Both the position numbers and the translations under genes were made by a program. The notes under the pieces are model-generated. The model did not search any database. It saw nothing but the letters and a program-made list of their open reading frames with translations, and was not told where the DNA came from. 32,000 nucleotides of DNA from Candidatus Harpocratesius repetitus (GTDB lineage: Archaea > Asgardarchaeota > Lokiarchaeia > Sigyniarchaeales > Promethearchaeaceae): positions 2,400,001 to 2,432,000 of the forward strand of contig JAIZWK010000001.1 of assembly GCA_021498095.1 (NCBI GenBank), read 5' to 3'. This document shows positions 678 through 17,123 of this stretch, piece after piece (the first letter of the stretch is position 1; every line of letters starts with the position of its first letter).

Positions 678-820
678 AGATTAAGTATAGATTAAGTATG
701 AATTGAGCACAGATTAAGTATAAATTGAGCACAGATTAAGTATGAATTGAGCACAGATTAAGTATGAATTGAGCACAGATTAAGTATAAATTGAGTATAG
801 ATTAAGTATAAATTGAGTAT
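678..820. repeat. Tandem array: 6 x 22-bp unit AGATTAAGTAT(G/A)AATTGAG(C/T)A(C/T), preceded by an 11-bp half unit
   Basis: Units at 689-710, 711-732, 733-754, 755-776, 777-798, 799-820; half unit AGATTAAGTAT at 678-688; no spacers. Confidence 0.95.
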
Positions 821-887
821 ATAAGTATAGATGCAGTTCACTTCTCCATCTTTATATCAAAATCACAATATCCTTATTGAGCAATAC

Positions 888-896
888 TTTTTTTTT
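888..896 (+). terminator. Possible archaeal oligo-U terminator (T9)
   Basis: T9 run downstream of ORF 1-663 and the repeat array; position only. Confidence 0.25.
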
Positions 897-1082
897 ACTA
901 TGATAATCTCAACTAAAGCTCTTCAATATATTGAAAAGCAGCGCCATTCATTCGAATTGCCTGTATTACTTTTGTATGAAAAAATATATCGTGGTTGATG
1001 CGGAATCTCAACCTATCCCAAAGCTTCACTTAGTTCTCGGAATTCTATCACTGATTTCTCAGCATACATAGAAATAACACAA

Positions 1083-1696
1083 ATGAATTGGAAAGAACGC
1101 ATATGTACAAATCCGAATTACTGTGAGTTATTACAAATGCCAATTTTGATTACTCACCAACTCATGGAAGCATGGGATAGATTAGAAGTGCACCTTTATG
1201 GAAAGTACTTATACAAGCAGTTAATTCTCATGCGCACCTAAAGATATGGATGAATTCATCCCGCAAATTTTGGAATGAATGACGTCGAGCCATCGATTAT
1301 TATTCTTAGATGCGCTAAATATTATTAAAAAATTGTCTTCAATTCAAACTCGCAGTTATTGATGCTACAGCAGTGCTTCGTATATTACTTGAAATACAAA
1401 AACGAGATGCACTTATACTATGAAGAATATGCTGATGAAAGTGCCATGAATAATTTTAATGCATATTTAGATGCAATTGAGAGATTTATCGGATAAAAGA
1501 TTGGTCTGCTCATGTTTATAACGATAAATTAGAATTGATATTGGTTAGGCAGGATTTCGATATTAAAAAAAGGAAAGATGTTGATAAAGTTTATAAAATA
1601 GATGCATATAGTTGTATTTTTCCCAATAATGAAGCAGATTTTTCTGCTTTCATCAACTGCAGAGAAATTGAAATATCTGGAGAAACTCCATCTTAA
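1083..1696 (+). pseudogene. Fragmented coding remnant(s), possibly a decayed toxin-antitoxin-like pair
   Basis: Protein-like fragments in shifting frames: SAPLWKVLIQAVNSHAHL, KLAVIDATAVLRILL, MHLYYEEYADESAMNNFNAYLDAIERFIG (1407-1496), and a start-less frame 1481-1696 (KLELILVRQDFDIKKRKDVDKVYKID...). Resemblance to HEPN/MNT/PIN proteins is weak. Confidence 0.2.
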
Positions 1697-1782
1697 AAAC
1701 CTAATAATATCTGGATTTGAATTTTCCTTTGCATACCAAAACATCCCTTAAAAAAAATTATAAAAATATTAAATTAATTAGA

Positions 1783-1965
1783 ATGACTGATTATGCAAAT
1801 ATTGCTTTAGTAATCGCTGGATTAGTTCCTATTACTATTTCAGCAACGAAAGTAGAAAAATATTATACGGAATTTTATGGTTATACTTTAATTATCTTAG
1901 GTTTCATTTTAGATGAACAGATATATATTGAATTAATGATTATTGCTATATTTTTTATAATTTAA
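1783..1965 (+). CDS. Small hydrophobic protein (60 aa), possible membrane protein
   Basis: ATG at 1783 within track ORF 1717-1965; MTDYANIALVIAGLVPITIS...YTLIILGFIL...LMIIAIFFII has 2-3 hydrophobic stretches. Confidence 0.3.
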   Translation: MTDYANIALVIAGLVPITISATKVEKYYTEFYGYTLIILGFILDEQIYIELMIIAIFFII

Positions 1966-2070
1966 AAAAGAATTGTTGTTAGCAAATTAATAGAATAATA
2001 TCTAAATCATGATTCAAATAAATAAATGTTTTTGAATATTTTATCATACAAGGAATGTATAAGTTGTTAT

Positions 2071-2520
2071 TTAGAGGATTGAAAGTTTTCCGATGATATA
2101 TCTTCGGTGTTGAAAAAAATATATAATATTTTCTGTTTTTTTACTTATTATCAATAAAATAACCCAATTAATATTTCCATAGATTGGATTTTTGATCATA
2201 GTTTTAATTGACAATTTGTCAATAAATGAAGCAGAATCAGGACCATGAGGATGCGTATGCCATTCCCCAAGATAATCTGTATCTGGATTTCGCTTAATAG
2301 ATTCAATTAATTCAGGATAAATGTGCTCTGTGGATCTAAAAACACCAAATGGTGATTGAGAGATTGGATTTTCATCCTCGATAATATCTGTTATACGATA
2401 TAATTCATTATTAATTTTTTTTCCTACTAAGATTCCACAACGTTCTTTTTTGTAATTTTCATACTTTACATCTCTAAAAAATCGATTATATAATTTCTCT
2501 TCAATTTCAACTTCGATCAT
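2071..2520 (-). CDS. cap3: JAB/MPN+ metallo-isopeptidase, CBASS Cap3-like
   Basis: ERCGILVG (catalytic E) and YLGEWHTHPHGPDSASFID (HxH...S..D). ATG at 2520 overlaps the end of the E2-E1 gene; the track start at 2529 is a GTG. Confidence 0.9.
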   Translation of the reverse strand: MIEVEIEEKLYNRFFRDVKYENYKKERCGILVGKKINNELYRITDIIEDENPISQSPFGVFRSTEHIYPELIESIKRNPDTDYLGEWHTHPHGPDSASFIDKLSIKTMIKNPIYGNINWVILLIISKKTENIIYFFQHRRYIIGKLSIL

Positions 2521-4180
2521 TTTCACCACAAATCGGACATTCTTGCCATTTCGAAAAATTTTGAATTTTGATCATATTTGGTTCTTCAAATATCCAACCT
2601 TGGTAATTTCCTACTAAAAAATGATCATAATCGACCGGTTGAAAGAAATTCTGAAGATTTATTTTTTCAGCGAGTGTTTGGAATGCGAATCGTACAATCT
2701 TGTTTGCAATTTCTTTAATATCTAAATTAATTCCTGGAATTCCCGATTGGTGATATAAATCTTTTTGATGTTGTTCAAAAACCATACTGGGAAATTTGTC
2801 TGGATAAATATCTATTTGGTGATTAATGCAGTTAAGACATGGAGAGCCATCCTTTACTCGAAATATTCTTCCGAAACGGGCATTTTTCAAGCAAGTCCCA
2901 AATATCAAAGGTACATTATTCATTACACAAACTTCATTTAATTCATATTCATCCAATTCATGATCTATGGTAGAAATGACAAGATCGGAATCTTTTAAAT
3001 GAGTAAAGAACTCACTACGCATCATTGGATTAAATGGGGATCCCTTATATGCAGAAACTGAAACTTTGGGAGATAGAAAATGAGTAAATTCTTTCATGGC
3101 AAAAGCTTTTGGGAGACCTAAATAGGGAAGTGGCATGAAATTTCGCATGACGTTTTCAGGTTTGTATATATCAGGATCATATATTACAATATTCTGAATT
3201 CCATTGTGAATTAGTTCTTCATAGACTTTTGAACCCAAGGAACCTAATCCGATTAAAATAATTTTTATTCTTTTTATATTCGAAAATTGAGATTCTTCAA
3301 TATTTTTCTGCCGTTTATACAAAAGATCATAAAATCCCTGATCAGAATCAATAGTTGAATAGAAATAATCACTTAACCTAAAATTTCTATTCCAATGGAA
3401 GAATATAAGAGGAAATTTATTTTTAATTTTAGAACATATCAATAAATCGTCACTAAGTTCATTATTGATAAAAATATCATAAGAATCTAATAAAAGGTTA
3501 ATATTTTCACTCTTTTGAGAGACAATTCTTTCAATAAAAGTTTCATAATTTCCATGAGATAATCTTACGATTTTTAATGGTCTTTTTCTCAATTCATTAA
3601 ATTTTTGAGATTTTTCATCAATAAAAAACCCATAGATTATTTGGAAAGGAAGAGTTGAGAATTCTTCAATAGAAAAAGCATGATAATATATTATATCGAT
3701 GTTTTCATTATAAATTCTATCATATATTCTTGGATTGATAAAATATTTTTCTTTGACTGCATAATCGTCAAGATTATAATTAATTGACGTATGTTCTTCG
3801 GATAATTTTCCAGTATATTTTAAATCAATATAATTCTTAAATTTCTTTAAAACCATATCAAGTCGATAGGAATCTGTCCACGCGGATTCGCCACTGTCTC
3901 TCGGAAAAAGACATATACTAAAATCTTGGAAATAATGACCTTTCCAGAAATCAGTAATTGCTAATTTAGAGTAATTTTCATTAGTATAACAAAAAAATTT
4001 GGGAGGAAACGCAGGATATAATGGATGATAAACTATATCAAAAAAAAATTGATGAGATCCATATTTATAATTACCTCGCCATGCTCTCAAGATTGATTTG
4101 TATTCTAGTGAAAATTCATCATTTTCCTCTAGAAATTGTTTAATAACGTCTTGATCTTCTTCAAAAACTATATTATCCAT
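2507..4180 (-). CDS. cap2: E2-E1 (UBC-like + ThiF-like) fusion, CBASS Cap2-like
   Basis: N-terminal E2 motifs LYPAFPPKF, GHYFQDFSICLF (Cys codon 3911-3913) and downstream W. C-terminal ThiF motifs IILIGLGSLGS, VIYDPD, ENVMRN and two CxxC (PCLNC, ECPIC). Lies between a CD-NTase and a JAB gene. Confidence 0.9.
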   Translation of the reverse strand: MDNIVFEEDQDVIKQFLEENDEFSLEYKSILRAWRGNYKYGSHQFFFDIVYHPLYPAFPPKFFCYTNENYSKLAITDFWKGHYFQDFSICLFPRDSGESAWTDSYRLDMVLKKFKNYIDLKYTGKLSEEHTSINYNLDDYAVKEKYFINPRIYDRIYNENIDIIYYHAFSIEEFSTLPFQIIYGFFIDEKSQKFNELRKRPLKIVRLSHGNYETFIERIVSQKSENINLLLDSYDIFINNELSDDLLICSKIKNKFPLIFFHWNRNFRLSDYFYSTIDSDQGFYDLLYKRQKNIEESQFSNIKRIKIILIGLGSLGSKVYEELIHNGIQNIVIYDPDIYKPENVMRNFMPLPYLGLPKAFAMKEFTHFLSPKVSVSAYKGSPFNPMMRSEFFTHLKDSDLVISTIDHELDEYELNEVCVMNNVPLIFGTCLKNARFGRIFRVKDGSPCLNCINHQIDIYPDKFPSMVFEQHQKDLYHQSGIPGINLDIKEIANKIVRFAFQTLAEKINLQNFFQPVDYDHFLVGNYQGWIFEEPNMIKIQNFSKWQECPICGENDRS

Positions 4181-4192
4181 CTTATAACCCTG

Positions 4193-5062
4193 TTATGCAA
4201 ATCGAGTTCCCGGAGAATCAGGTGATAGACGTGATTTTCTATTTCTGTTCTGATTGCGATAATTTGAATGAAAATCTGCTGATTTTTGGCGGAATATCTC
4301 TTTCCAACCTTCAATAATATCTAAATTTTGAGATAAAGCCCAAGATGCTGCGTCTTTACACTTTTTTTTTTCATAAGAAGTTGCTACATCTGCAATATTA
4401 TTAGATGAATTTGCAGGATCTTCAATTCGACATGTATCAATTGACGTTTCTAAGAATTTAAAAATTTTTTTTAATCCCTCATCAATGCTAATGTATGTAT
4501 CTTGAATTATTTCTATAGAAATCAATTCAATTAAAAAGCTTGGAATATCGATATTATTACGTACTTTCCATAATTTCATCAATTTTAAGAGATCTCTTCT
4601 ACGAAAATCACGAATCACCTTTATATGAGTCTTAACATTTGTTTTTAATGGACTGTCTTCTTTAGATCTATAAATCCAAGCATTGTCTTCATTTGAGCTC
4701 GATCTTTTTGCTGGAACAAGATCGATATGATAACCTTCACGTTTATTTATTCTCAAGGCAACATTTTTTTGTATAATGGACTGTTCTTTTCCCCGAATAA
4801 ATTTTAACACTTCAAAATATATTTCCCTTAGAGATTTTTGTTCTTCAGATGGAAAATACAATAATAAGTCCATATCATATGATTCTCGGATCATTGTTTT
4901 TTTTCCATACGAACCACCCCAATAATAGGTTGGTGTTTTTAGATTCTCTATTGAATTAATGATTCCTTCGTATTTTTCCCGATCATTTTGCATTTCCTTT
5001 TTAAAATTATCGGGAATTTTCTGTTGAATGATTAATTCCTTCAAATATTCAGTTATTGTCAT
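4193..5062 (-). CDS. CD-NTase (cGAS/DncV-like, SMODS) paralogue 1, with disordered C-terminal tail ending PGTRFA
   Basis: GGSYGKKTMIRESYDMDL (GS...DxD), YHIDLVP (third Asp), LMKLWK, EDPANSSNNIA (OAS/CD-NTase-type C-terminal motif); AAGGAG upstream; 12 bp before the E2-E1 gene. Confidence 0.9.
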   Translation of the reverse strand: MTITEYLKELIIQQKIPDNFKKEMQNDREKYEGIINSIENLKTPTYYWGGSYGKKTMIRESYDMDLLLYFPSEEQKSLREIYFEVLKFIRGKEQSIIQKNVALRINKREGYHIDLVPAKRSSSNEDNAWIYRSKEDSPLKTNVKTHIKVIRDFRRRDLLKLMKLWKVRNNIDIPSFLIELISIEIIQDTYISIDEGLKKIFKFLETSIDTCRIEDPANSSNNIADVATSYEKKKCKDAASWALSQNLDIIEGWKEIFRQKSADFHSNYRNQNRNRKSRLSPDSPGTRFA

Positions 5063-5100
5063 TTAAAATTCTCCTTATGGTCATTAACTAATTATACTAA
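5063..5100 (-). promoter_or_regulatory. Upstream region of CD-NTase 1: AAGGAG RBS plus TAGTTAATG element shared with paralogue 2
   Basis: + strand CATTAACTA at 5082-5090 and 6138-6146, each 20 bp from the respective ATG (5062, 6118). Confidence 0.5.
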
Positions 5101-5201
5101 TTTATATTTAAATATACAGTAAAGAGAAAAAGTAAATTAATTTAAATGTGAAACAACCAGACAGATCGATCAGAATTGATTAGAGATTATCTTTACTTTT
5201 T

Positions 5202-6118
5202 TTAAAAAAACCTTTTTAATAATTTAATACCCAGTATTTCTGCTCCAACTTTTAGAGCGAATTTGAAAAAATCATTATATCTCGTATTCTCATATTCCGG
5301 TTGATTATGTTCGATTTTAGCAAGTGGTTGATCTTTTTTTCGAAATACTTCCTTTCAACCTTCAATAGTCTGTAAATTCAAAGATAAACACCATTCTGCA
5401 ATATTTTTTGCCTTTTGCTTCTCAATAGGATCAGATACTTCATCTGCTACGATGTTGTTCGAAGCATTAGCTGGATCAGGAATATTTCATGATTCAATTC
5501 GACTCGCTATAAATTGGAATACATTAATTAAGCCATCTTCCAACCTGATTCTTTCATCTTGATTCATATTGATAGTAATAATTTCAACTAAAAAACTCGG
5601 AATATCAATATTGTTTCTATATTTCCACAATTTAACTATTTTTAATAGGTCTCTTCTCCCAAAATCACGTACAATTTGAATTTGTTTCTCTACAATTGTA
5701 GTTAATCTTTGTTTTTCCTGAGATTTATATAGATATGCCATTGATTCGTTTGTACTTGATCTTTTCGCAGGTACAATGTCAATATGATATCCTTCACGTT
5801 TTTCAATTCTAATAGCAATATTCTTTTGATATGCATTAGGTTCAACGAAAAGTATATAATCTTTAACAATCATATAAATCTCTTCCAAAAGATGAGGATC
5901 ATCAAAAGGAAAGTTGCATAAAATATCAATATCATATGAACATTTAATCAGTGTTTTTTTCCATATGATCCCCCCCAATAATAACTAGGACGAGATAATT
6001 CTTTGATTTGATTATTTAAAATTTCAAAATAGTCTCGATCTTGACGCATTTCTTTTTGTTCTTTTTTGCTGATTTTTTATATTTTTACTAGTTCTTTTAG
6101 ATAATCGGTAATTGCCAT
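5202..6118 (-). pseudogene. CD-NTase paralogue 2, tandem duplicate of paralogue 1, inactivated
   Basis: Manual translation from ATG 6118: MAITDYLKELVKI* (TAA at codon 14); 1-nt loss in the A-run of GSYGKK (A7 vs A8 in paralogue 1); TGA at 5487-5489; TGG>TGA in IEG*KEVF; frame ends ...GAEILGIKLLKRFF* at 5202. Track ORF 5487-5978 is its middle fragment. Confidence 0.9.
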
Positions 6119-6199
6119 TTCAAATCATCTAATTAGCCATTAACTATATATAATAATCGTTCTTTAAAAATATCATCATTAAACAAAGAGAAAATATTC
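6119..6199. promoter_or_regulatory. 81-bp divergent promoter region between CD-NTase 2 and the HNH-SAVED gene
   Basis: Palindromic TATATATA at 6145-6152 (27 bp from ATG 6118) and TTTAAAAA about 30-37 bp upstream of ATG 6200. Confidence 0.4.
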
Positions 6200-7351
6200 A
6201 TGTCAAAATATCCAACTCCTGCTACTAAGCTTAAAATTACAGCCGATCATGGTGGAAAATGTGCGCTGTGTGGTTTAGGAGGAAAAAAGGTTTATACCAA
6301 TTCAAAAGAAGAAAACCAGTTGGATTCATTTAATATTGGACAATTTGCTCACATTTATTCTGAAAATGAAAAAGGACCGCGCTATGATAAGAAGATTCCA
6401 GAGTCATTTCTTGCTTCTAAAGAAAATTTCTTGCTCTTATGTACAAATCATCATAATTATATTGATCAAAATGTGAAAAAGTTTCCCGCTAAAAAATTGA
6501 AAAAAATTCGAGAAAATCATGTTGGAAATGTAAGAAAACGTTTGGATTTGAAGGTAATAGAAAGAGTGATTATTATCTTGTTAAGGGATGACTACTTTGG
6601 AGGATTGAACACCAGTACCATTCAAAATACTCTTTCTGAAAGTGAAGTAGTTGTTAATTATTTAGATTTTCGAACGCAAACCCAAAATTCATCTGAAATT
6701 CCATGGCAAGAAGGTTTTCAATATTATACTAATAAATGGAATGAGTTTAAGACAGATTTCTTTGAAGATTTGAAATCCTCGATAGACTGTTTTCATATTT
6801 ACGGTATCACTCAAATTCCCTATGTATTCTTTTTTGGATTGTTTTTCAATGATACCCCAAAATTATTTGCTCATCAATGGAATCGAGAAAAAAATAAATG
6901 GGAAGGTTTTTCTGAAACGGCTCAAAATGATGTTTTCACATCCTCAATAGAAATTCACGATACAAAGGATATAATTCTAAAAATAGAATTATCGTCAAAA
7001 ATCAATAACAAAATAATTGAAAAATTAGGCTTGAATCTGAAAAATCAAGCCTCCCTTCAAGTAGAAGATCCTTCTCGAACTTGGTTAAAATCAATTAACC
7101 AAACAGAATCATTCTTAAATCATTACAGGAATTTGATGGATGAAATTAAAGAACGATTACCAGAATCGGAAATTCATCTTTTTTATGCCGGACCTGTTCC
7201 ACCTTTATTCCATATGGCTTCTGCTTATAATCCCCGAATGGATCGACCAATAAATATTTATTATTATTTTGTCAATCCTGAAACTAAACTCTCAGAATAC
7301 AAATTTGTATTTAATTCTGTAGAGATCATGCAAAAATACAATTTTCTTTAG
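6200..7351 (+). CDS. cap5: HNH endonuclease-SAVED effector, CBASS Cap5-like
   Basis: GGKCALCG...IGQFAHIYS...GPRY...NFLLLCTNHHNYID (Zn-HNH); C-terminal SAVED-type IHLFYAGPVP; flanked by CD-NTases. Confidence 0.88.
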   Translation: MSKYPTPATKLKITADHGGKCALCGLGGKKVYTNSKEENQLDSFNIGQFAHIYSENEKGPRYDKKIPESFLASKENFLLLCTNHHNYIDQNVKKFPAKKLKKIRENHVGNVRKRLDLKVIERVIIILLRDDYFGGLNTSTIQNTLSESEVVVNYLDFRTQTQNSSEIPWQEGFQYYTNKWNEFKTDFFEDLKSSIDCFHIYGITQIPYVFFFGLFFNDTPKLFAHQWNREKNKWEGFSETAQNDVFTSSIEIHDTKDIILKIELSSKINNKIIEKLGLNLKNQASLQVEDPSRTWLKSINQTESFLNHYRNLMDEIKERLPESEIHLFYAGPVPPLFHMASAYNPRMDRPINIYYYFVNPETKLSEYKFVFNSVEIMQKYNFL

Positions 7352-7370
7352 AGTAGCAAATCTCCAATTC

Positions 7371-8138
7371 TCATCTCTGTTTCTTAAAGATCTCACCCCA
7401 ATATGTGCGATTTAATGCTTGATATGCTTTCTGCTCAATCTCCTTTTTTTCTCTGGAAGTTAAATTATCAGTCACAATATTCTGTTTATTTGCGGGATCA
7501 TAATATTCTCGATCGCAAATATTTCGAGCGATATATTCTAAACATGTTTCTAATTGGATAGAAAGAGAAGTTCTTGTTATATTCCAACAAGCTAAATGAA
7601 CCATGATTTCGAGTAAGAATGTAGAGATAGGAACGTTTTTCCGGAATTTCCAGAGTTTTAGCAGACGAATTACATCTCTTCGATTATATTTCTCAATTTC
7701 ATTGATATGTCGATTTAAACTGGTTCGTAAATATTGTTCCGTTTCAGAATTATAGAGATAAGAATAATCCGGATCGTGGGAATCTTGAACAGATGGCACA
7801 ATATCCACATGAAACGTTTTATTGTATGGCAAACACCATGCCACTTTCTTCTTAATTATTTTATTCCATTCTAAATGAAGTGCATCTTCAACTTGATAAA
7901 AAATCTTTTTTATATCCCCAAAATTAGGTTCCCAGATGAGAAACATATCTAAATCATGATATTCTTTAATCCAAGTATTTTTCTTGAATGATCCAGCCAT
8001 AAACATACTTGGATGTCCGCCAATAGAGTCATTAATGCATCTTCTGATCCGATCTCGCAATTTTAACATACTATCAATTTGAGATTGAGCTGGGTGACTA
8101 TTTCTTAAAACCTTGTTGAGGAATTCTTCGTCATTCAT
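7371..8138 (-). CDS. CD-NTase paralogue 3 (255 aa, no C-terminal tail)
   Basis: AGSFKKNTWIKEYHDLDMF, FHVDIVP, LLKLWK, YDPANKQNIV; ends WGEIFKKQR. Confidence 0.88.
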   Translation of the reverse strand: MNDEEFLNKVLRNSHPAQSQIDSMLKLRDRIRRCINDSIGGHPSMFMAGSFKKNTWIKEYHDLDMFLIWEPNFGDIKKIFYQVEDALHLEWNKIIKKKVAWCLPYNKTFHVDIVPSVQDSHDPDYSYLYNSETEQYLRTSLNRHINEIEKYNRRDVIRLLKLWKFRKNVPISTFLLEIMVHLACWNITRTSLSIQLETCLEYIARNICDREYYDPANKQNIVTDNLTSREKKEIEQKAYQALNRTYWGEIFKKQR

Positions 8139-8304
8139 TTTTATTCTCTTATATTCTTTTCACATGATGAATATGTGGATTCCAACTATTACTATCGCGA
8201 TTGATGTGTATACAAGAATGGTATATATTAATTGAAATATTAATAAGAAAAAACTTGCATTATTTTTTTGGTAATTGCATTATTTATTGAGTTTTACACA
8301 AATC

Positions 8305-9426
8305 TCAAAGGTTTTGGAATACAAGACAATAATGATGGTGAACGTTAGAAATATAGGTAGTTGGATAACCCCAGATTCCCATAAATTTCTGATCCTGACA
8401 CCAAATAAATTCTTGTTTTAGAGATAAGTTCTTTCCAAGGATTTTAGCAAAATCCCAAGCGACTGGTCTCATATTACCTTCTTTATCGCGAATGTTTTGT
8501 AATATAATAATGAAATAACCTTCCTTTTCTACAATTTGAGAGATATTTGAGAATATTTCGCTTAAATTATTTAAATACTTATCATAATCATCAATATTAC
8601 CAAAATCCTTTTCATCATCGCTATATTTCTCATCAAAACCTTGTTCAACCCTCTGTTTTAAAGCAGATTTTACACCTCCTCTTGATGTTCCTAGCATATT
8701 CCAGTAAGGTGGTGATGTAACTACACATTTCATCTTAGGTAACTTCATTTCTTTCCATATTTTAACAGTATTTCGACAATCATCATTGATAACGATATAT
8801 TGTGTTTTTGACTCTTCTTTATTAAAAAATGAATCTAAAGTTTTTTGATTGTCAACAGAACGCTTTTGTGCATAAGAAGCGTATTCCGGATTTAATTCTA
8901 TGCCGAAACAATTTCTATCTAAATCTCTACAAGCAACTAAAGTCGAACCAATTCCAAGAAATGGATCAAAAACCCAATCACCTTCTTTTGAAAAAAATTC
9001 AATGAAATGTCGTGCAAGTGCAGGAGGATAACTTGCAGGATGATTTTTAATTTCTTTAGGAATATCTGAAGGTTTTCCATCTACTATAAGCCAACTCTTT
9101 GTATGTCTTAACCATTCTTTACCTGTTAGATTGTTTAAAGAGTTTCTTTCATCATATTCCCCTTTTTTTTCACATTTATATTGAATTTCTCTTGTTTCTT
9201 TAGCCAAAAGACGAAACAGTTTAGCACTATTAATAAAATCCCCTTTTTCAAAAAGTTTTCTAGTTTCATTTACTAAATCGAGTATTTCATTATTCTTTCT
9301 ATTAATTATATCTGAAGAATTGCTTTTAAAATTAGGATTTTTATCAATCTCATCAAGAATTTCTTTAGGAATAACCCATCTTTTTTGTTTTCCTTTCTTT
9401 TTAGAATTCAACTGGTTTTCACTCAT
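8305..9426 (-). CDS. DNA amino-methyltransferase (probably m4C), circularly permuted motif order
   Basis: HPASYPP, DPFLGIGST (motif I), GIELNPEY, then VTSPPY (motif IV); start overlaps the upstream gene's stop (ATGA, 9423-9426). Confidence 0.88.
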   Translation of the reverse strand: MSENQLNSKKKGKQKRWVIPKEILDEIDKNPNFKSNSSDIINRKNNEILDLVNETRKLFEKGDFINSAKLFRLLAKETREIQYKCEKKGEYDERNSLNNLTGKEWLRHTKSWLIVDGKPSDIPKEIKNHPASYPPALARHFIEFFSKEGDWVFDPFLGIGSTLVACRDLDRNCFGIELNPEYASYAQKRSVDNQKTLDSFFNKEESKTQYIVINDDCRNTVKIWKEMKLPKMKCVVTSPPYWNMLGTSRGGVKSALKQRVEQGFDEKYSDDEKDFGNIDDYDKYLNNLSEIFSNISQIVEKEGYFIIILQNIRDKEGNMRPVAWDFAKILGKNLSLKQEFIWCQDQKFMGIWGYPTTYISNVHHHYCLVFQNL

Positions 9427-11075
9427 AATTCATCCCATGTTTGTCCGCTAAAATAGACAATTCTTTTGTTTATTTGAATTTTTATAGAACTACATTTTTC
9501 TATCACATTTTTATCGACCAAATCTTGATAAATTGTGTCTTCTTCCGTCAATTGCATTGGTAAATCTTGAATTTTTATCGTTTTTCCAAAATTTTCATTA
9601 ATTTTTCTATATAAGGATATTTCTTCTGCACTTTTACTTGTCACAGGTATATATGTTGTTTCATTTAATTTTGATAGATATTCTTTTCCTTTTTCAGTAA
9701 TTCCTACTATGGATGTAATTTTGTACCCTCTACTTATAATTTCAATTGGATCAGATAAATTATTTGGTATTTTATCTATACTTTCGACATTATTGGATTT
9801 TTTCCACCCTTGTGTTTCAAGATCAATTAATCCGATTGTAAAAGCCCAACCAAACATCCTTCTTGTGAAATTGTTTACTCTTTTCTTGTATTTATTATAT
9901 GTGAGAGGAATATAATCTTTAGTTTTATTGTTCCAAATAATATATTTTTTTTGCAAAATTTTGTTAATTTCTTTAATCCTTTGTTTTTTATTCGGTATTT
10001 CCAATAATCTTTCAACTCCAATCAAAGCATTTCTTAAATTTTCAGGTGTTTCCTGCAAAGTAGTTAGAATATAAAAACCTAAAAGATATTGATGAATTGA
10101 AATATTATAACCTTTTTTTTCAAGCTCATTAAGAATCCAGAGCATGATGTAAAAGGGTCTAGCTTTCATATACATATATTCGGAATAATTTGTTAAATCT
10201 TGCTCACAATTAAAAATACCATAATTTACTATCGATTCAGTTAATAATCGTCGTCTTTCCTTTTCTTTTTGCGAGATATTTTCAAGAGATTCGTAATTAT
10301 TATCAATAAAATTTCCATCACAGATAATTTCCCCCTTATTTGTAATTTTATAAGAGTAATTAAATGTACCCCCTGATTCGCTTACTTCTCTCGTTTTAGA
10401 CACTAATCCAATATAATTGGCAAAATCAAGGGAATCCCTTATTTCTTCTTTTGAACCGCGCTTAGTCTTCGAAGATGCTCTTGGAATAAAACTTATGGGA
10501 ATATCATAAGTGATTTGTTTTAGTAGAGATAAATTACTTGATATATTACTTATGGTATTGTTATTCATACAAAAATGGGAAATTAATCTAAAAAATGCTT
10601 TAGATTCATATGCATTTTTAGGAAAATGCAAAAATGCAAGATTTACTCTTTTATCTGTGTTCTTTTGCCTATATCTTGGCATATATAGTACTTCAAAAGG
10701 ATTTGTATATTCAAAAGAATTAAATTTAAAATTATTAAAAAATTTACATATTTCAGAATATATAAACGGAGGAAGTGCATCTTTTTTAATAATTGTTTCA
10801 ATTGGAGTATAAATTCTACGAACTATTGCGAAATTTTGAGTTTCTTCTTCCCAACAAACAGCATACAAATATTCATAAGTCTTTGATCGAAGTTCTTTTC
10901 GAATTTCTTTTATTTTTTCGCTATTAATAATATTCGTTGATTTTGATATTACTTGTTCATTAAAATCATTCAATTGTATTATATTTCCATTAGTTGGAAA
11001 ACCCTTCTTTTCAAAAAATTTAATTAAATCATCAGAGGATTTTATCATTTTAAATTTTATTTCTCTCACCTTCAT
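9423..11075 (-). CDS. 550-aa hypothetical protein with repeated winged-helix-like segments; candidate DNA-specificity subunit
   Basis: Two helix-GL[VI]...IT.KG segments (DFANYIGLV...YKITNKG; FGWAFTIGLI...GITEKGKEYL) and RPFYIMLWIL, reminiscent of FokI/AlwI-type recognition domains; TAATG overlap with helicase gene; no PD-(D/E)xK or HNH motif recognised. Confidence 0.55.
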   Translation of the reverse strand: MKVREIKFKMIKSSDDLIKFFEKKGFPTNGNIIQLNDFNEQVISKSTNIINSEKIKEIRKELRSKTYEYLYAVCWEEETQNFAIVRRIYTPIETIIKKDALPPFIYSEICKFFNNFKFNSFEYTNPFEVLYMPRYRQKNTDKRVNLAFLHFPKNAYESKAFFRLISHFCMNNNTISNISSNLSLLKQITYDIPISFIPRASSKTKRGSKEEIRDSLDFANYIGLVSKTREVSESGGTFNYSYKITNKGEIICDGNFIDNNYESLENISQKEKERRRLLTESIVNYGIFNCEQDLTNYSEYMYMKARPFYIMLWILNELEKKGYNISIHQYLLGFYILTTLQETPENLRNALIGVERLLEIPNKKQRIKEINKILQKKYIIWNNKTKDYIPLTYNKYKKRVNNFTRRMFGWAFTIGLIDLETQGWKKSNNVESIDKIPNNLSDPIEIISRGYKITSIVGITEKGKEYLSKLNETTYIPVTSKSAEEISLYRKINENFGKTIKIQDLPMQLTEEDTIYQDLVDKNVIEKCSSIKIQINKRIVYFSGQTWDEL

Positions 11076-14000
11076 TATTTTCTAAAAATTATCATGGATT
11101 TCATTTCTAATTTAATATCATCATGCTTAAGTAATTTTGATGTGTATTGGGAAAATTTTTCGGTTTGATTTTCTAAAAACGCATCAAATTTTTGTATTTC
11201 CGAAAGAATTTTATATGGATTTGCAGGGGGATTTTTATTTTTATATTTTTCAATTAATTTATTTAAAATATCTCTATATTCATTAAGTATTATCTTATTC
11301 ATAGAAAATGAAAGGAAAAGATGGAATTTTTCCCATAATTTTTTCTGCGCTTGTTTTACTGATTCAATATTGGTAGTATTTAAGAAATCTGTCATTCTTG
11401 GATAAAAATACTTTTTCACTAAAGTGTTTAATTCCGTTTTTTTATTTTCGATTGATTTTTCTTTAACTGTATATTTCAAACTATACTTTTTTATGATTTC
11501 TTCTTTTTCACTTTTAAAAATCTTTTTAATTTTTTCTAGATCAAGATAATCTTGTTCGGATAGTTTTCTATCTTTATCTTCTTTATCTTCTTTATCAAAA
11601 TTAATTAAATCATAAATCTTGATAGATTCATCATTAAAGGAATAACTCTTCTTTATATTATAGTAGAAATTTTTTAAAAATTGTTCGGATTGTAAATAAG
11701 TAATAACTTTAGCATTGAGATCTGATTTAAAAATAGTAAAATATTTCTTTCGATATTTTGGAACGAACAGATCTCTAAGCTTAATACCAAAAACATCTGT
11801 CATTTTTATTAGGAATTTGTCTAAATTACTAAATCTTAGGGCAATATCTTCAGAATTTTCTTGTTGGAAAGATAGATCTGTAATCTTTTTTATTTTATTT
11901 ATAATTTCACACATGCTATCTCTTTGATTTTGTATTATATCTAATTGTTCTTCAAGTGTAAGAATACAATATTCAGTCCCTATTGCTAGGGCTATATTCT
12001 TTATTTTTGATTTGACTTTTGTTAAAAACCTTTCGAGAAATTCAATATTATTATCAGGAATGAAATTTGCGACAAATATATCCTTAATATTAGTAATTCG
12101 ATCAACTCTTCCAATTCTTTGAATCATTTTTACAGGATTCCAAGGAATATCATAATTAATAACCCAATCTGCTTCTGGGATATTGAACCCTTCGCTCAAT
12201 ACATCAGTAGAAATTAAAAACTGATTTTTTTTTTCCATTTTAAATAATTCTAAAACATTAAAACGCTCAGGTTTAGATAATGCTCCGGTTATCAATAAAG
12301 AATTTTCTATGTTATCATGTAGATAATGTGCAGTATCTGCATATTGAGTGAAAATTAGGAATTTAGTATCTGAATGTTTCAAATTGTATCCTTCAAATTT
12401 AATCAGTAATCCTGGATTCGAAAGGAATGTTTTTAACAAGAGTATTTTTTCATCAATTTTGAAAACATTTGATAGTTTCATTCTTTTTTCTTTATTAATT
12501 TCTTGCTGGAAGTTATTTTCTTTAAAAACTAAATAATTTAAGATATTTAGGATATAATCGTATTTATCAAGAATTTTATCAAAATCAGTTAATTTTTTAA
12601 TAGTATTTATAATTTTTTCCATTTTTTTCTTAAAGTTATCATTATTTTCTCTGATTTCTGATAAAATATTCTTATACCCGCTACCTAATATTAATTCTAT
12701 TAAAAATAATTCATTATCAATGAAATAATATATTTTATCATCTGAAATATTTTTAATATTAAATAGCATATTTTTAATTAAATTCAAATCGTAAAATATT
12801 TTAGAGATAACCATAGATAGTTCATCTTCATCTAATTTCAGCAATTCAATCCATTTTTCTGAGATTTGGTTCAAATCAAATTCTTCATTTTCATCTTCTT
12901 TTAAATTAATTAGAATTTTATCTAAAAGGGTCTTCTGTTCTAAAAATTTAATATTTCCATTATCAATATCTTCTTCTTTTTCTTTCTCGTCCTTGCTTTC
13001 ATGAATTCTATAATGAAAAGAAGAGTATATAAAAATTAAAATCGTCATTTCCGACAATAATAAGTTTGATATTGAAGTAAAAAAGGAATAGGGAGAACTT
13101 TCCAATCTTTTTGCTAAAAAAATGTAATAGAATGTGTGAAATTGAGTATCATCTTTTAATGGATCAACATGAGGTAAATTTAGGTCCACAATCATATCTC
13201 TAGTTTCTTTGAAGAGCGAAGAAAATGATGGATTTTGAATTTTGTATTCAAGAGGTTGTAAAATTGGATCTTTTATACTAACATCATTATTTTTTATTTG
13301 ATAATATTCTTTTTTCATCTTTTTCAAATCAAGTCTACTTGTTTGAACAAATAGTGCTTTTCTTATCTTTTTTATTTGTTCCTTTTGAGACAACATAATA
13401 TCTTGATTCATTAAGAGAAATGCTGAAAGTTCATCTTCATTTGTAATTTTCCTCATTGGATTCTCTATTTTTTTTACAAATTCTGATAATTGGTGATATT
13501 CAGCTTCAATATCATTCTGCTTAAATTGATTTTCATCATGGAATATTGATATGATATTATAGATATCTATATAGGAATTATTCATAGGGGTTGCTGTTAA
13601 TAAAATGAATTTCGTCCCAATTTTGGGAATTTTAATCAAATTTTTATAACGATTTGATGTATTGTTTCTAAAATTATGAACTTCATCTATTAAAACCACA
13701 TCATAATGTTTATTTATTTCAAAATCTGAAATTCCAAATGAATACATTGAAATAATATCGATTCGATGGTCTAAAGGTGATATTTGAAACTCTCTTAGAT
13801 AATCTTCCCATTGTTTAATAATCCCTGGTGGTAAAATTAATAAAATTTTTATTTCTTTATAGATCAAATAGTCTGCAAGCAATTTACAAGCGATATAACT
13901 CTTTCCAAGCCCCACTGAACTTGTAATCATAACTCCATTAAAATTCTTCAAAATTTCTTTAGCTCGTTGATAATCTACTTTCTGAAATGGCAATAATTCA

Positions 14001-14788
14001 ATTTTCTCTTCAAGTAAGTATTCTTTGTTCCAATCTAAAATTTGTTGGATTATGAATTTTTTTGGATGAAAATATTTCCATTCTACTTTTTTTTTTTTTT
14101 TTTTAAATTTCGGTGTTGATTCGATAATTCGCAAGATTTTATCATTATAGTCTTGTGAAGATTGCCACAATTCATGAAAATAATTTGTTAGCCACTGATT
14201 CTCTTCCTTAGAATTAAAAACGGCATTTAATTCCACATTAGTTCTTAAACCTGATGTAGATAAATTAGAAGAGCCGAAAATCCCTTTATCATCTAAAGTA
14301 CCACCAAATTCTTCAGGTAAAACCCTATGAAATAAATATAGTTTTGTATGAAGTTTAGATTGGTCAAAAATTTTCACTTTTATTATCCCATCTTGAATAT
14401 TTTCGTAAAATGAGATTAATCCATCAAAATTTTTATCTGATAATGAAATGATTTCATCTTTAATCTTAGAATACAAGGTTTTACTATTATACCTAGGAAT
14501 ATGAGAATATTTCAATGTCGATTTTGTAAGTTTATCGGTGTGATCTCCGATAATCAATAAAAATGGTGCTGAAGTTCCATAAAGTTCGATATAAGATTCA
14601 TTATCGATACGATTTAAATTGATTTTTTCATATATTTCATTATAACCGGATAAAAAAAAGAACCCAGTTGCAATTTTCACTTCTTTACAACCTTGTAAAT
14701 ATTTTTTTATCACATCCCCTAATTTGATTTTTCTATTATCGATAAAAGTTGGAATATCAATTAATTCAGAATTTACTTTTGAATTCAT
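11075..14788 (-). CDS. PLD-family nuclease fused to SF2 (SNF2-related) helicase/ATPase, 1237 aa
   Basis: LHTKLY and GSSNLSTSGLRTNVELN (PLD); SSVGLGKS (Walker A), LIDEVHNFRN, LLTATPMNN, IFTQYADTA, STDVLSEGFN, NYDIPWNPVKMIQRIGRVDR. Confidence 0.9.
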   Translation of the reverse strand: MNSKVNSELIDIPTFIDNRKIKLGDVIKKYLQGCKEVKIATGFFFLSGYNEIYEKINLNRIDNESYIELYGTSAPFLLIIGDHTDKLTKSTLKYSHIPRYNSKTLYSKIKDEIISLSDKNFDGLISFYENIQDGIIKVKIFDQSKLHTKLYLFHRVLPEEFGGTLDDKGIFGSSNLSTSGLRTNVELNAVFNSKEENQWLTNYFHELWQSSQDYNDKILRIIESTPKFKKKKKKVEWKYFHPKKFIIQQILDWNKEYLLEEKIELLPFQKVDYQRAKEILKNFNGVMITSSVGLGKSYIACKLLADYLIYKEIKILLILPPGIIKQWEDYLREFQISPLDHRIDIISMYSFGISDFEINKHYDVVLIDEVHNFRNNTSNRYKNLIKIPKIGTKFILLTATPMNNSYIDIYNIISIFHDENQFKQNDIEAEYHQLSEFVKKIENPMRKITNEDELSAFLLMNQDIMLSQKEQIKKIRKALFVQTSRLDLKKMKKEYYQIKNNDVSIKDPILQPLEYKIQNPSFSSLFKETRDMIVDLNLPHVDPLKDDTQFHTFYYIFLAKRLESSPYSFFTSISNLLLSEMTILIFIYSSFHYRIHESKDEKEKEEDIDNGNIKFLEQKTLLDKILINLKEDENEEFDLNQISEKWIELLKLDEDELSMVISKIFYDLNLIKNMLFNIKNISDDKIYYFIDNELFLIELILGSGYKNILSEIRENNDNFKKKMEKIINTIKKLTDFDKILDKYDYILNILNYLVFKENNFQQEINKEKRMKLSNVFKIDEKILLLKTFLSNPGLLIKFEGYNLKHSDTKFLIFTQYADTAHYLHDNIENSLLITGALSKPERFNVLELFKMEKKNQFLISTDVLSEGFNIPEADWVINYDIPWNPVKMIQRIGRVDRITNIKDIFVANFIPDNNIEFLERFLTKVKSKIKNIALAIGTEYCILTLEEQLDIIQNQRDSMCEIINKIKKITDLSFQQENSEDIALRFSNLDKFLIKMTDVFGIKLRDLFVPKYRKKYFTIFKSDLNAKVITYLQSEQFLKNFYYNIKKSYSFNDESIKIYDLINFDKEDKEDKDRKLSEQDYLDLEKIKKIFKSEKEEIIKKYSLKYTVKEKSIENKKTELNTLVKKYFYPRMTDFLNTTNIESVKQAQKKLWEKFHLFLSFSMNKIILNEYRDILNKLIEKYKNKNPPANPYKILSEIQKFDAFLENQTEKFSQYTSKLLKHDDIKLEMKSMIIFRK
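14087..14104 (-). repeat. In-frame A18 homopolymer (T18 on +) encoding KKKKKK between PLD and helicase domains
   Basis: 18 consecutive T at 14087-14104; codons about 229-234 (TPKFKKKKKKVEW). Confidence 0.9.
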
Positions 14789-15774
14789 TTATTTCACATT
14801 TTTAATTGGAGCGATATTATCCTTTATTTCTTATTTCTTTAAAGTCTTACTTTGGCTTCTTCTCTTTATAATAACATTATTTTACATTCAATTCAGAGAT
14901 TTGATCTAACATTAATTGAAATATCTCTCTCTTCGTTGTTTTGGTCAAATAATCTATCATTATTTTTCTATACTGATATATTCGACGTTAAATTATTTAC
15001 ATTTAAATTTAGAAAAAAAACTCTCACATCCATCTAATTTCGGAAGTAAAACAGATTCCAATTGAATCTTATAACCAATTTCTTAAAATAATGATACAAA
15101 TGCAAAAATATTTTTGAATTTTTGGTTGTCATCTTAAATCATTTTAACTTATTTTTAATGATATATGTTGACAAAATCCGATTTAATTGTTATAATAAAT
15201 CAATGCAGAGAAATTGCTTATTTTTAAATAACTTGATAAAACCATATCAAATCATTATATGGAATGATATATATGGAAAATTCTAAGTAAAAAAATAAGC
15301 TAGTCAGTTAAGAGAAGTTAAACCATCCCCCGTTTCTTTTCGCACCATCAGATATTCAGAAAAACAAAAAATGCAAGGAATTATTTTAGAATTTTATCAT
15401 AATTACCGGAGTAATACATTAACCTATCTAAATTGCTTGGGTGGGGAATCCCTTTTAGAAGATTGCTTGATGGTGCTACTCGAACACTCACAAGAAGTTA
15501 TAAAGTACCTTCCATAAGCAAATCCGATTTCAGAAAATAAAGAAACGAAAAAATTAGAATATAAACTTCATAAATTTCAAACCTTGAAAAAAAGGGAAAT
15601 AAGATAATTCTTACTTTGATTTGAAAATTCATCAATTTTTGGTTTAAAATCAAAAATTAATTACTCAAACTCATAAAATTTTTTTTATATGAAACATTAT
15701 TGCTTTCAACTACTGTAAAATATTCTTATCTTTATTATTATTTTACATGGTTTTAAACATAATTGGTGAACATT

Positions 15775-16230
15775 TTGGCTCGAATGCATTCACGTAAGAA
15801 AGGAAGTTCGGGGTCTACTCGACCAGCAAAGCTAGAAATTTTGCCATGGTTCCCTCACAATGCCGAAGAAGTTGAAGCAAAAGTCATCGAATTGGCAAGG
15901 AAGGGGGAGTCCATGTCTCGGATCGGAATTGAGCTTCGAGATAGTTTTGGTACACCCTTAGTAAAAATAATTACTGGAAAGAAGATTTCCCAAATATTGC
16001 GGGAAAATGATCTTCTTCCGAAGATTCCTGAAGATGTGCTATTTTTGTCGCGAAAAGCGGTAAATATCCGCCATCATTTAGAAGAGAATAAGAAAGATTT
16101 AGAAGCCCGAAAGGGATTAAATCGGACAGAATCGAAAATACGTCGCTTAGTGAAATACTATCGACGGAAGGGAGTGTTGCCCCCTGATTTTAAGTATGAT
16201 CCGGAGAAGATCAAGATTTTCCTCCGATAA
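15775..16230 (+). CDS. rps15: 30S ribosomal protein uS15 (S15P/S13e)
   Basis: MARMHSRKKGSSGSTRP...IPEDV..L..KAVNIRHHLEENKKD...ESKIRRLVKYY; TTG start at 15775 with GGTGA 5 nt upstream (track start 15763 is probably too early). Confidence 0.97.
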   Translation: MARMHSRKKGSSGSTRPAKLEILPWFPHNAEEVEAKVIELARKGESMSRIGIELRDSFGTPLVKIITGKKISQILRENDLLPKIPEDVLFLSRKAVNIRHHLEENKKDLEARKGLNRTESKIRRLVKYYRRKGVLPPDFKYDPEKIKIFLR

Positions 16231-16250
16231 GCGAACGGTGATGAAAAAAT

Positions 16251-17123
16251 ATGTCAAGTAGAGCTCATAAAGGTCGAAAAGGCAAGCGTGCGCGAGGAAA
16301 AACCATTGATAGTTGGAAATCCAAAGAATGGTATGAAGTTTTTGCTCCGAAAGCCTTTAAAGAAGCATTTTTAGGGGAAATTCCGTCATCCACTCCCGAT
16401 TCTTTAGTAGGGCGGACCATCGAAATTTTATTGTATGATTTAACCAAAAATTTTAAACATACAACTATTAAGCTTAAATTTAAGATTGTTGATGTTCAAG
16501 GAAAGCGTTGTAATACAGTTTTCTTTGGACATGAATTGACTCGAGATTTTGTAAGGTCTTTGATTCATAGAGGTTCAAGCCGAGTGGATGGAATTTTCAA
16601 CTATACTACCGCCGATGGTGTTGTTTATCGGGTAAGTACATTTGTTGTTACTCGACGGCGTGCGAAGAGGTCTCAGAAGTTAACCATTCGGAAGATAATT
16701 CATGATGTTTTACAAGAATTTGCCAAAAATATGACGCATGAGAAATTTATTCAAGGTGTGATATATGGTAAGTTTGCGTTAAACATTAAGAAGATTGCAA
16801 AAACAATTTATCCACTTCGGGAATGTCAAATTCGGAAAGTGAAAGTAATCAGTATTCCTGAAGGAGTTACAGATCAAATTGAAGTAAGCGATCAAGAAGA
16901 ATTTGATGAAGTTGAGATAGAATTAAAAGAGCATGGGAAAACGGTAAAGGCAAAGAAACATCAGAAGCATCACGAGCATGAAGCCGAAGAAGGAGAAATG
17001 GGTGAAGGTGAAGGTGCTGCTGATTCTGAGGGATCTGAAGCCGTGGAACCAAGTGAAAGCAGTGAAAGCAGTGAAACAGGCGAAAGTACTGATTCAAGCA
17101 ACTCAGAAAAATCAAATGAATAA
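16251..17123 (+). CDS. rps3ae: 30S ribosomal protein eS1 (S3Ae) with long acidic C-terminal extension
   Basis: DSWKSKEWYEVFAP, GRTIEILLYDLT, GHELTRDFVRSLIHRGSSRVD, KTIYPLRECQIRKVKV; GGTGA upstream. Confidence 0.96.
   Translation: MSSRAHKGRKGKRARGKTIDSWKSKEWYEVFAPKAFKEAFLGEIPSSTPDSLVGRTIEILLYDLTKNFKHTTIKLKFKIVDVQGKRCNTVFFGHELTRDFVRSLIHRGSSRVDGIFNYTTADGVVYRVSTFVVTRRRAKRSQKLTIRKIIHDVLQEFAKNMTHEKFIQGVIYGKFALNIKKIAKTIYPLRECQIRKVKVISIPEGVTDQIEVSDQEEFDEVEIELKEHGKTVKAKKHQKHHEHEAEEGEMGEGEGAADSEGSEAVEPSESSESSETGESTDSSNSEKSNE
17052..17087 (+). repeat. 9-bp coding tandem repeat (AGTGAAAGC-like x4; SES SES SET GES)
   Basis: Units at 17052, 17061, 17070, 17079 within the eS1 tail. Confidence 0.8.

Follow-up and report, generated by a model that had tools for sequence, protein, structure and literature searches.

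The 32,000-nucleotide window analysed here (forward-strand positions 2,400,001 to 2,432,000 of contig JAIZWK010000001.1, Candidatus Harpocratesius repetitus, Asgardarchaeota) contains three adjoining minus-strand genes, referred to below as the trio, that encode a PLD nuclease–SNF2 helicase (P0001), a putative DNA reader without a nuclease domain (P0002) and a DNA methyltransferase (P0003). We consider it rather likely that the trio is a three-subunit, ATP-dependent restriction–modification system on a variable defence island. Its three uninterrupted open reading frames (ORFs) and their junctions are as follows.

11075..14788, minus strand: gene 1 (P0001, 1237 residues), the proposed motor-nuclease effector, with a PLD/HKD nuclease and an SNF2-type translocase of helicase superfamily 2 (SF2)
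11073..11077, minus strand: TAATG stop/start overlap of genes 1 and 2, where the minus-strand reading AGA AAA TAA overlaps ATG AAG GTG
9423..11075, minus strand: gene 2 (P0002, 550 residues), a predicted Type IIS-like recognition protein that stands alone and has no nuclease domain
9423..9426, minus strand: ATGA start/stop overlap of genes 2 and 3, where the minus-strand reading GAA TTA TGA overlaps ATG AGT GAA
8305..9426, minus strand: gene 3 (P0003, 373 residues), a DNA methyltransferase of family PF01555 whose motif order is circularly permuted against the Pfam model

A preliminary description of this DNA had read the genes as a PLD-SF2 helicase, a nuclease-free winged-helix protein and a permuted methyltransferase, joined by TAATG and ATGA overlaps. 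Both overlaps and the intact reading frames were verified, and the three assignments are borne out by the domain analyses that follow.

Domains of the three proteins

By its sequence, P0001 is a member of the PLD-SNF2 helicase family, and its top PADLOC model is the candidate family 'HKD+Snf2' (PDLC01075, 2.5e-44, residues 15-827). Pfam matches comprise PLDc_2 (7e-10, residues 128-208), SNF2-rel_dom and ResIII (7.5e-8 and 2.9e-6, residues 263-501) and Helicase_C (6e-25, residues 803-898). The nearest solved relatives by sequence are SNF2/Rad54-type double-stranded-DNA translocases, with the Sulfolobus SNF2/Rad54 helicase 1z63 as the best. An alignment of 24 sequences, P0001 and 23 relatives, defines as invariant the HKD residues H147, K149 and G172-S-S-N175, the Walker A residues G293, G295 and K296, D368-E-x-H371, T400-P401 and motif VI (Q890-R-x-G-R...R897), and P0001 has kept every one of them. 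Since each chain carries one HKD motif only, the active site would need a dimer, as in BfiI and in MtsD, the PLD-SF2 protein of the MANTIS system. P0001 is a single-copy protein in its own genome.

14264..14350, minus strand: single HKD motif, H147-x-K149 ... G172-S-S-N175 (24-sequence alignment)
14087..14104, minus strand: A18 tract on the coding strand, K229-K234, in the linker between PLD and helicase; it is not kept in relatives, and P0005, the helicase of locus L001, has YKKFKK there
13289..14026, minus strand: helicase lobe 1, about residues 255-500, with GLGKS (293), DEVH (368) and TATP (398) (Pfam and alignment)
12095..12382, minus strand: core of helicase lobe 2, Helicase_C residues 803-898, with motif VI QRIGR at 890 (Pfam and alignment)
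11078..11863, minus strand: C-terminal region, about residues 976-1237, which aligns only with the helicases of two other trio loci

Pfam contains no family for this C-terminal region. In L001 and L016, the two further trio loci, tblastn matches run along P0001 to residues 1233/1234; in the helicase loci L002, L003 and L006 they stop at about 1002-1044. Models for DrmD, BrxH, DpdE and the NCBIfam PLD anti-phage helicase match the P0001 helicase core only and stay far under their cut-offs. As to the A18 tract, an A16 tract was also seen inside the gene 2 homologue (L001:3832-3847); the two lie in different genes and their position is not conserved. Such tracts may be slippage-prone switches, or they may simply be a product of AT-rich genomes.

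For P0002, Pfam, PADLOC and NCBIfam gave no family match. Its AlphaFold2 model has a mean predicted local distance difference test (pLDDT) score of 64.8 and is good over residues 150-540 and poor over residues 1-149. Foldseek placed FokI as the first match of this model (E 7e-6). VIA-align gave Z 14.9 for residues 2-293 of Nt.BspD6I, 12.9 for the BpuJI recognition domain and 10-11 for residues 7-375 of FokI, whereas ordinary winged-helix regulators reached 8.8 at most. From this fold and the lack of a nuclease domain it follows that P0002, as far as sequence and model tell, is a FokI/Nt.BspD6I/BpuJI-type recognition module without its cleavage domain.

10671..11075, minus strand: N-terminal domain, residues 1-135, found only in the nuclease-free subfamily (also in L001 and L016); proposed docking domain
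9432..10655, minus strand: recognition module, residues 141-548, with several winged-helix subdomains (VIA-align, Foldseek and phmmer)

Word-index homologue searches for P0002, by sequence and by profile, returned P0002 itself only, a profile search of PDB sequences with the gene 2 family alignment gave no match, and an ESM Atlas feature search with residues 1-140 yielded no usable match. A pattern scan for gene 2 relatives found none in genome contigs, viral contigs and plasmids, and metagenomes added only the loci L011 and L012. MAFFT had aligned the N-terminal domain under the PLD domain of a relative, P0136, from which arose the idea of a dead PLD domain that pairs with the helicase PLD; this was rejected with an hhalign probability of 0.1%. 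Complex prediction of the N-terminal domain with the PLD and C-terminal regions of the helicase gave a score of 0.00, the fold of the partner being uncertain, so that this score speaks neither for nor against a contact.

P0003 matches N6_N4_Mtase (PF01555, 4.5e-28) in two pieces, and the C-terminal part of the profile comes first in the protein. Together with a motif I that precedes SPPY, this means that P0003 is a circular permutation of the Pfam model. It does align co-linearly with two PADLOC models of Type II methyltransferases, PDLC03363 and PDLC03391, so that known enzymes with this motif order already exist. N4-cytosine enzymes usually carry SPPY, and from this motif alone we infer that P0003 may produce N4-methylcytosine (m4C); its solved relatives, matched around motif I only, include both m4C and N6-methyladenine (m6A) enzymes.

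8947..8967, minus strand: S-adenosylmethionine-binding motif I, DPFLGIG, residues 154-160 (sequence)
8704..8715, minus strand: catalytic motif IV, SPPY, residues 238-241, also kept in the methyltransferases of L007 and L009

P0003 also has paralogues. One of them, 50-52% identical to P0003, immediately follows a MutS of the bacterial type (domains I-V) in the own genome (L120:6895-8052, corresponding to G000:C1:1022894-1024051) and in both same-genus genomes (L110:5333-6481 and L111:1057-2196). Here, a methyl mark could be tied to mismatch repair in this archaeal lineage. These MutS-adjacent paralogues carry the same N-terminal extension of about 85 residues as P0003, and the extension was therefore rejected as a trio-specific feature. 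A third paralogue (47% identical, on a long branch) is encoded at about 1.85 Mb of the own genome (L121:6875-7903), some 1.8 kb from a 678-residue Eco57I/TaqI_C-type protein (L121:9679-11715).

Recurrence of the trio and its genomic setting

The preliminary description had presented the three genes as one candidate system, and a gene-neighbourhood survey agrees with this, as the full order recurs in a metagenome locus, L016, and helicase and reader recur in another, L001. The nuclease-free reader thus has three occurrences, and each time the gene just ahead of it encodes a PLD-SNF2 helicase from one and the same subclade, with frames that overlap or abut. In L001 (24% G+C), P0005 is the closest helicase relative of P0001 (44% identical), and the 542-residue reader, which overlaps the helicase gene by 8 bases, matches P0002 from end to end at 32% identity (E 5e-83); the contig ends after gene 2. 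L016 (39% G+C) has all three genes in the same order, with identities of 31-69% by segment for the helicase, about 39% for the reader and about 50% for the methyltransferase. Numerous breaks interrupt its frames, owing either to errors in the long-read assembly or to decay. L122 was rejected as an independent occurrence, its DNA being 97% identical to that of L016. Because the same gene order is found on two unrelated metagenome contigs of different G+C, the arrangement is not due to chance. The helicases of the trio loci are moreover mutual closest relatives that share the C-terminal region absent from other family members, and the two trio methyltransferases are sisters in the tree (support 91/91).

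Elsewhere the PLD-SNF2 family keeps other company. No relative of P0002 or P0003 occurs in any of 80 other PLD-SNF2 loci from species-representative genomes; a large methyltransferase of the MmeI/Eco57I/Type_ISP_C kind adjoins the helicase in about 46 of the 80, and some helicases, for example that of L002, stand alone. Four loci from Clostridia-type genomes (L091:8001-14832, L094, L095 and L097) encode, in this order, the helicase, a DUF4391 protein of about 205 residues and a 650-residue PF01555 methyltransferase. At L006:3285-4496, a 403-residue protein with no Pfam match and no similarity to P0002 is encoded between a PLD-SNF2 helicase (39% identical to P0001) and an MmeI-like methyltransferase.

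An exhaustive phmmer search with P0002 among 1.84 billion representatives found 13 proteins. Six of these (P0125-P0129 and P0133, 491-661 residues) match P0002 from about residue 140 to 478 with their N-termini (E 2.9e-19 to 7e-8); they start at about P0002 residue 137-144 and so lack its N-terminal domain. In five of the six, a C-terminal PD...ECK domain follows, the exception being the truncated P0127 (491 residues). Pfam recognised this domain as FokI_cleav_dom in P0133 (6.6e-5) and, weakly, as Mrr_cat in P0126 (3.4e-3), and FokI_cleav_dom appears in the contig records of P0133, P0128 and P0129. In the alignment, P0002 and its L001 counterpart stop where these relatives run on into the PD...ECK domain of about 250 residues. 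A seventh relative, P0136, has an N-terminal PLDc_2 domain ahead of the same core. Hence P0002 is nuclease-free, as the preliminary description had it; its homologues carry a fused nuclease, FokI-type or PLD.

A PF01555 methyltransferase, 41-56% identical to P0003, adjoins all six relatives whose contigs extend to the neighbouring gene (L007/L008, L009, L011/L124/L125, L017, L018 and L123; the L012 contig stops too early), and none of these six loci contains a helicase. The recognition module and the P0003-type methyltransferase are hence, to judge from these neighbourhoods, evolutionarily linked. The sequences compared also divide cleanly, as fused-nuclease readers never stand beside the helicase and nuclease-free readers always do. 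At L123:542-4520, the FokI-like relative of gene 2 lies between two PF01555 methyltransferases of 295 and 402 residues, where the trio has one.

The genome consists of one 4.36-Mb contig, and the window has a G+C content of about 29%, with 25.9% in the trio versus 30.3% in the remainder. In Pfam scans, the genes downstream of the trio (2507-8138) are of the type found in the cyclic-oligonucleotide-based antiphage signalling system (CBASS), namely SMODS, HNH-SAVED, CD-NTase and E1-like, and those at 15763-17123 encode ribosomal proteins of the eukaryote/archaea type, S3Ae and S13/S15. Methyltransferase paralogues apart, the 0.7-15.7 kb stretch with CBASS and trio has no DNA counterpart in two genomes of the same genus and two of the same family, whereas in them the ribosomal-protein and NTP-transferase genes at 15.7-20 kb are 70-80% identical in DNA. 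The window from about 700 to 15750, CBASS plus trio, thus behaves as a single variable island. A profile search of 400 genomes of the phylum found the P0002 family in this genome only, plus two marginal partial matches. The absence of the island from relatives, the sporadic P0002 family and the low G+C of the trio point to a mobile, sporadically distributed defence unit of which the trio would be a part. Between the helicase start and the S15 gene, about 970 bases (14789-15762) hold no ORF of at least 80 residues, no tRNA and no Rfam match. No RNA sequencing runs containing the locus are listed; one DNA run is listed, which may be the source sample.

Comparison with named systems

The preliminary description could not match the combination to a named system, and this still stands. 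In the literature we found no named system in which a PLD-SNF2 helicase is joined to either a FokI-like reader or an MmeI-like methyltransferase, and by its domain content the trio fails the defining features of MANTIS/BREX-related type 2, DISARM, CglI/NgoAVII, Type ISP and Type III.

By analogy, the nearest functional counterpart would be CglI/NgoAVII, which has the same four activities. These ATP-dependent Type II restriction systems are described with the PLD domain on the reader and with a DEAD-Z1 motor (PMC4267653, PMC5737866, PMC5861437). They resemble the trio in having three genes, which together supply a methyltransferase, a PLD nuclease domain, a domain for sequence-specific DNA binding and an SF2 ATPase motor, and in placing motor and recognition on separate proteins. 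The assembly differs, as their PLD is described as fused to a B3-like reader, whereas in the trio it is fused to the SNF2-type motor and the reader is FokI-like and nuclease-free. Correspondingly, P0002 shows no PLD similarity by hhalign and has a FokI/BspD6I/BpuJI-like fold, unlike the R-protein of CglI/NgoAVII, and the Z1 domain of their H/N protein is not among the P0001 Pfam matches with E up to 0.1. The CglI/NgoAVII methyltransferase is a C5 enzyme, unlike the family of P0003.

The effector of MANTIS, also known as Gao_RL or BREX-related type 2, likewise consists of an N-terminal HKD/PLD nuclease and an SF2 helicase-like ATPase (bioRxiv 10.64898/2026.09.23.753747; PMC12839542). A separate recognition step on unmethylated sites precedes its action, and we propose the same for the trio. 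Cryo-EM showed that the PLD-SF2 protein MtsD forms dimers, each with a single PLD site, and its ATPase is required for restriction; licensing of a PLD-helicase by a separate reader has not yet been reconstituted in vitro for MANTIS (bioRxiv 10.64898/2026.09.23.753747). P0001 has the same domain make-up as MtsD but scores only 100 bits against the NF042964 model (PLD anti-phage helicase), whose cut-off is 1100. However, MANTIS requires a DUF499 AAA+ ATPase (MtsA), a small DUF3780-type protein and a large N6-adenine methyltransferase bearing a recognition domain (MtsC), and the trio has none of these. DUF499 (PF04465) had no match in the whole 4.36-Mb genome, while two of 14 control genomes did match (Thermus thermophilus and Thermotoga maritima), and Pfam scans of the genes near the trio gave CBASS and ribosomal genes without DUF499. 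As for MtsC, Pfam gave no N6_Mtase, Eco57I or MmeI match for P0003, a PF01555 enzyme of 373 residues. Nor did we find the DISARM components beside the trio, that is, a DrmA helicase, DrmB (DUF1998) or a separate DrmC PLD protein; with P0001, the NCBIfam DrmD models reached 104 and 80 bits, their cut-offs being 610 and 950.

The PLD-SNF2 helicases paired with MmeI/Eco57I/Type ISP-like methyltransferases belong to the same helicase family, P0001 being 31-39% identical to P0006 and P0008. In these two-gene pairs, one large protein methylates and recognises, whereas the trio has two proteins borrowed from a Type IIS-like system. With FokI-like Type IIS enzymes the trio shares the recognition fold of P0002, whose homologues bear FokI_cleav_dom, and P0003 is homologous to their partner methyltransferases. 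The recognition domain of several winged-helix subdomains is nevertheless the only Type IIS feature found in the trio, for those enzymes carry the cleavage domain on the same polypeptide, while P0002 has none, possesses an extra N-terminal domain and is preceded by the gene of an ATP-driven nuclease. The logic of coupling site recognition to an SF2 motor and a nuclease is likely common to the trio and to Type ISP (LlaGI/LlaBIII) and Type III systems, as perhaps are one-strand methylation and a dependence on site orientation. Type ISP enzymes, however, unite an Mrr nuclease, SF2 motor, gamma-class methyltransferase and target recognition domain (TRD) in a single polypeptide, in contrast to three proteins with PLD and PF01555 domains, and Type III systems use a Mod with an internal TRD and a Res with a PD-(D/E)xK nuclease instead of a separate recognition protein and a PLD nuclease.

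Proposed mechanism, rival explanations and meaning

In the mechanism that we propose, P0003 would mark a short DNA site on the host genome, and P0002 would bind the same site when it is unmethylated. P0002 might then recruit or license P0001 through its subfamily-specific N-terminal domain, with the subfamily-specific C-terminus of P0001 as the obvious candidate contact. P0001, as a dimerising PLD nuclease and an SNF2-type double-stranded-DNA translocase, would move along the DNA with ATP and cut once two single-HKD PLD domains have formed one active site, which is modelled on BfiI and the MtsD dimer. The subunit contacts, the dependence on unmethylated sites, translocation, cleavage geometry and kind of methylation in this scheme are predictions, as is an effect against viruses. 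All in all, the trio is real, rare and probably functional, and we take it to be a new subunit arrangement of ATP-dependent restriction–modification. We also lean, though only slightly, towards viewing it as an undescribed class in which a stand-alone specificity subunit of Type IIS origin, made up of a FokI-like reader and a new docking domain, guides a PLD-SNF2 motor nuclease that works as a dimer.

Several observations weigh against such a system. With three occurrences only, one of them with the many broken frames of L016, the family is tiny. The N-terminal domain of P0002, on which docking would depend, gives no recognisable fold (pLDDT 26-60). The clade of P0003 includes the MutS-adjacent, apparently orphan methyltransferases and hence seems to have uses beyond restriction, so that P0003 may do more than protect the host. 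An asymmetric site might furthermore be marked on only one strand by a single small methyltransferase; in that case, freshly replicated host DNA could be spared only under an orientation rule of the kind seen in Type III, Type ISP or MANTIS. Two methylases are the classical answer to an asymmetric site, and the two that surround the nuclease-fused relative in L123 leave the protection logic in question.

Two unrelated units might alternatively lie side by side, namely a decayed Type IIS system, reduced to reader and orphan methyltransferase by loss of the cleavage domain of its endonuclease, and a solitary PLD-SNF2 nuclease that works alone or is bereft of its MmeI-like partner. We regard this as unlikely. 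Gene 2 relatives are indeed ordinary two-gene Type IIS-like systems, and most PLD-SNF2 helicases pair with large MmeI/Type ISP-like methyltransferases while some are solitary (L002); yet the same order with overlapping frames is found in three loci of different G+C, and the nuclease-free reader was never seen without the helicase, nor at the 80 other helicase loci. P0002 moreover is full-length and has not merely lost a domain but gained a conserved one of 135 residues at its N-terminus. The same protein could also be a regulator, either an operator-binding controller or repressor or a methylation reader that tunes expression, rather than the targeting subunit of the nuclease. Controller proteins are frequent in restriction–modification operons, and subdomains of P0002 also resemble PadR/MarR-type winged-helix regulators (Z 7-8.8). 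Its best fold matches, however, extend over some 250 aligned residues in the recognition domains of Type IIS enzymes and score well above the regulators, its sequence homologues are endonucleases, and with 550 residues it far exceeds known controller proteins in size, which makes a regulator very unlikely.

We give least credence to a role outside defence, in which the trio would be a module for methyl-directed DNA repair or chromatin handling whose SNF2 motor acts at marked sites to remodel or process host DNA. P0003 does group with the methyltransferases that directly follow MutS in its own and the same-genus genomes (support 100/99). The trio, however, lies in a strain-specific stretch beside CBASS genes that is absent from the same-genus genomes, its other occurrences are in unrelated organisms, and the PLD-SNF2 family is otherwise tied to restriction-type methyltransferases.

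What is new in the trio is the way of assembling a restriction–modification system; the parts themselves are known. If the proposed three-subunit system is real, one module of recognition and methylation would be served by three interchangeable nucleases, two of them fused to it as a PD-ExK or a PLD domain and the third a motor-PLD acting in trans. The recognition half of a FokI-type enzyme would then be able to serve a translocating nuclease as a detachable specificity subunit, and the Type IIS, CglI-like and Type ISP/MANTIS-like designs would be linked by a natural series of domain swaps. As a small and tractable three-protein system, the trio could be used to study how a PLD-helicase effector is licensed by a separate reader. 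It also enlarges the sparse catalogue of defence genes in the Asgard lineage.

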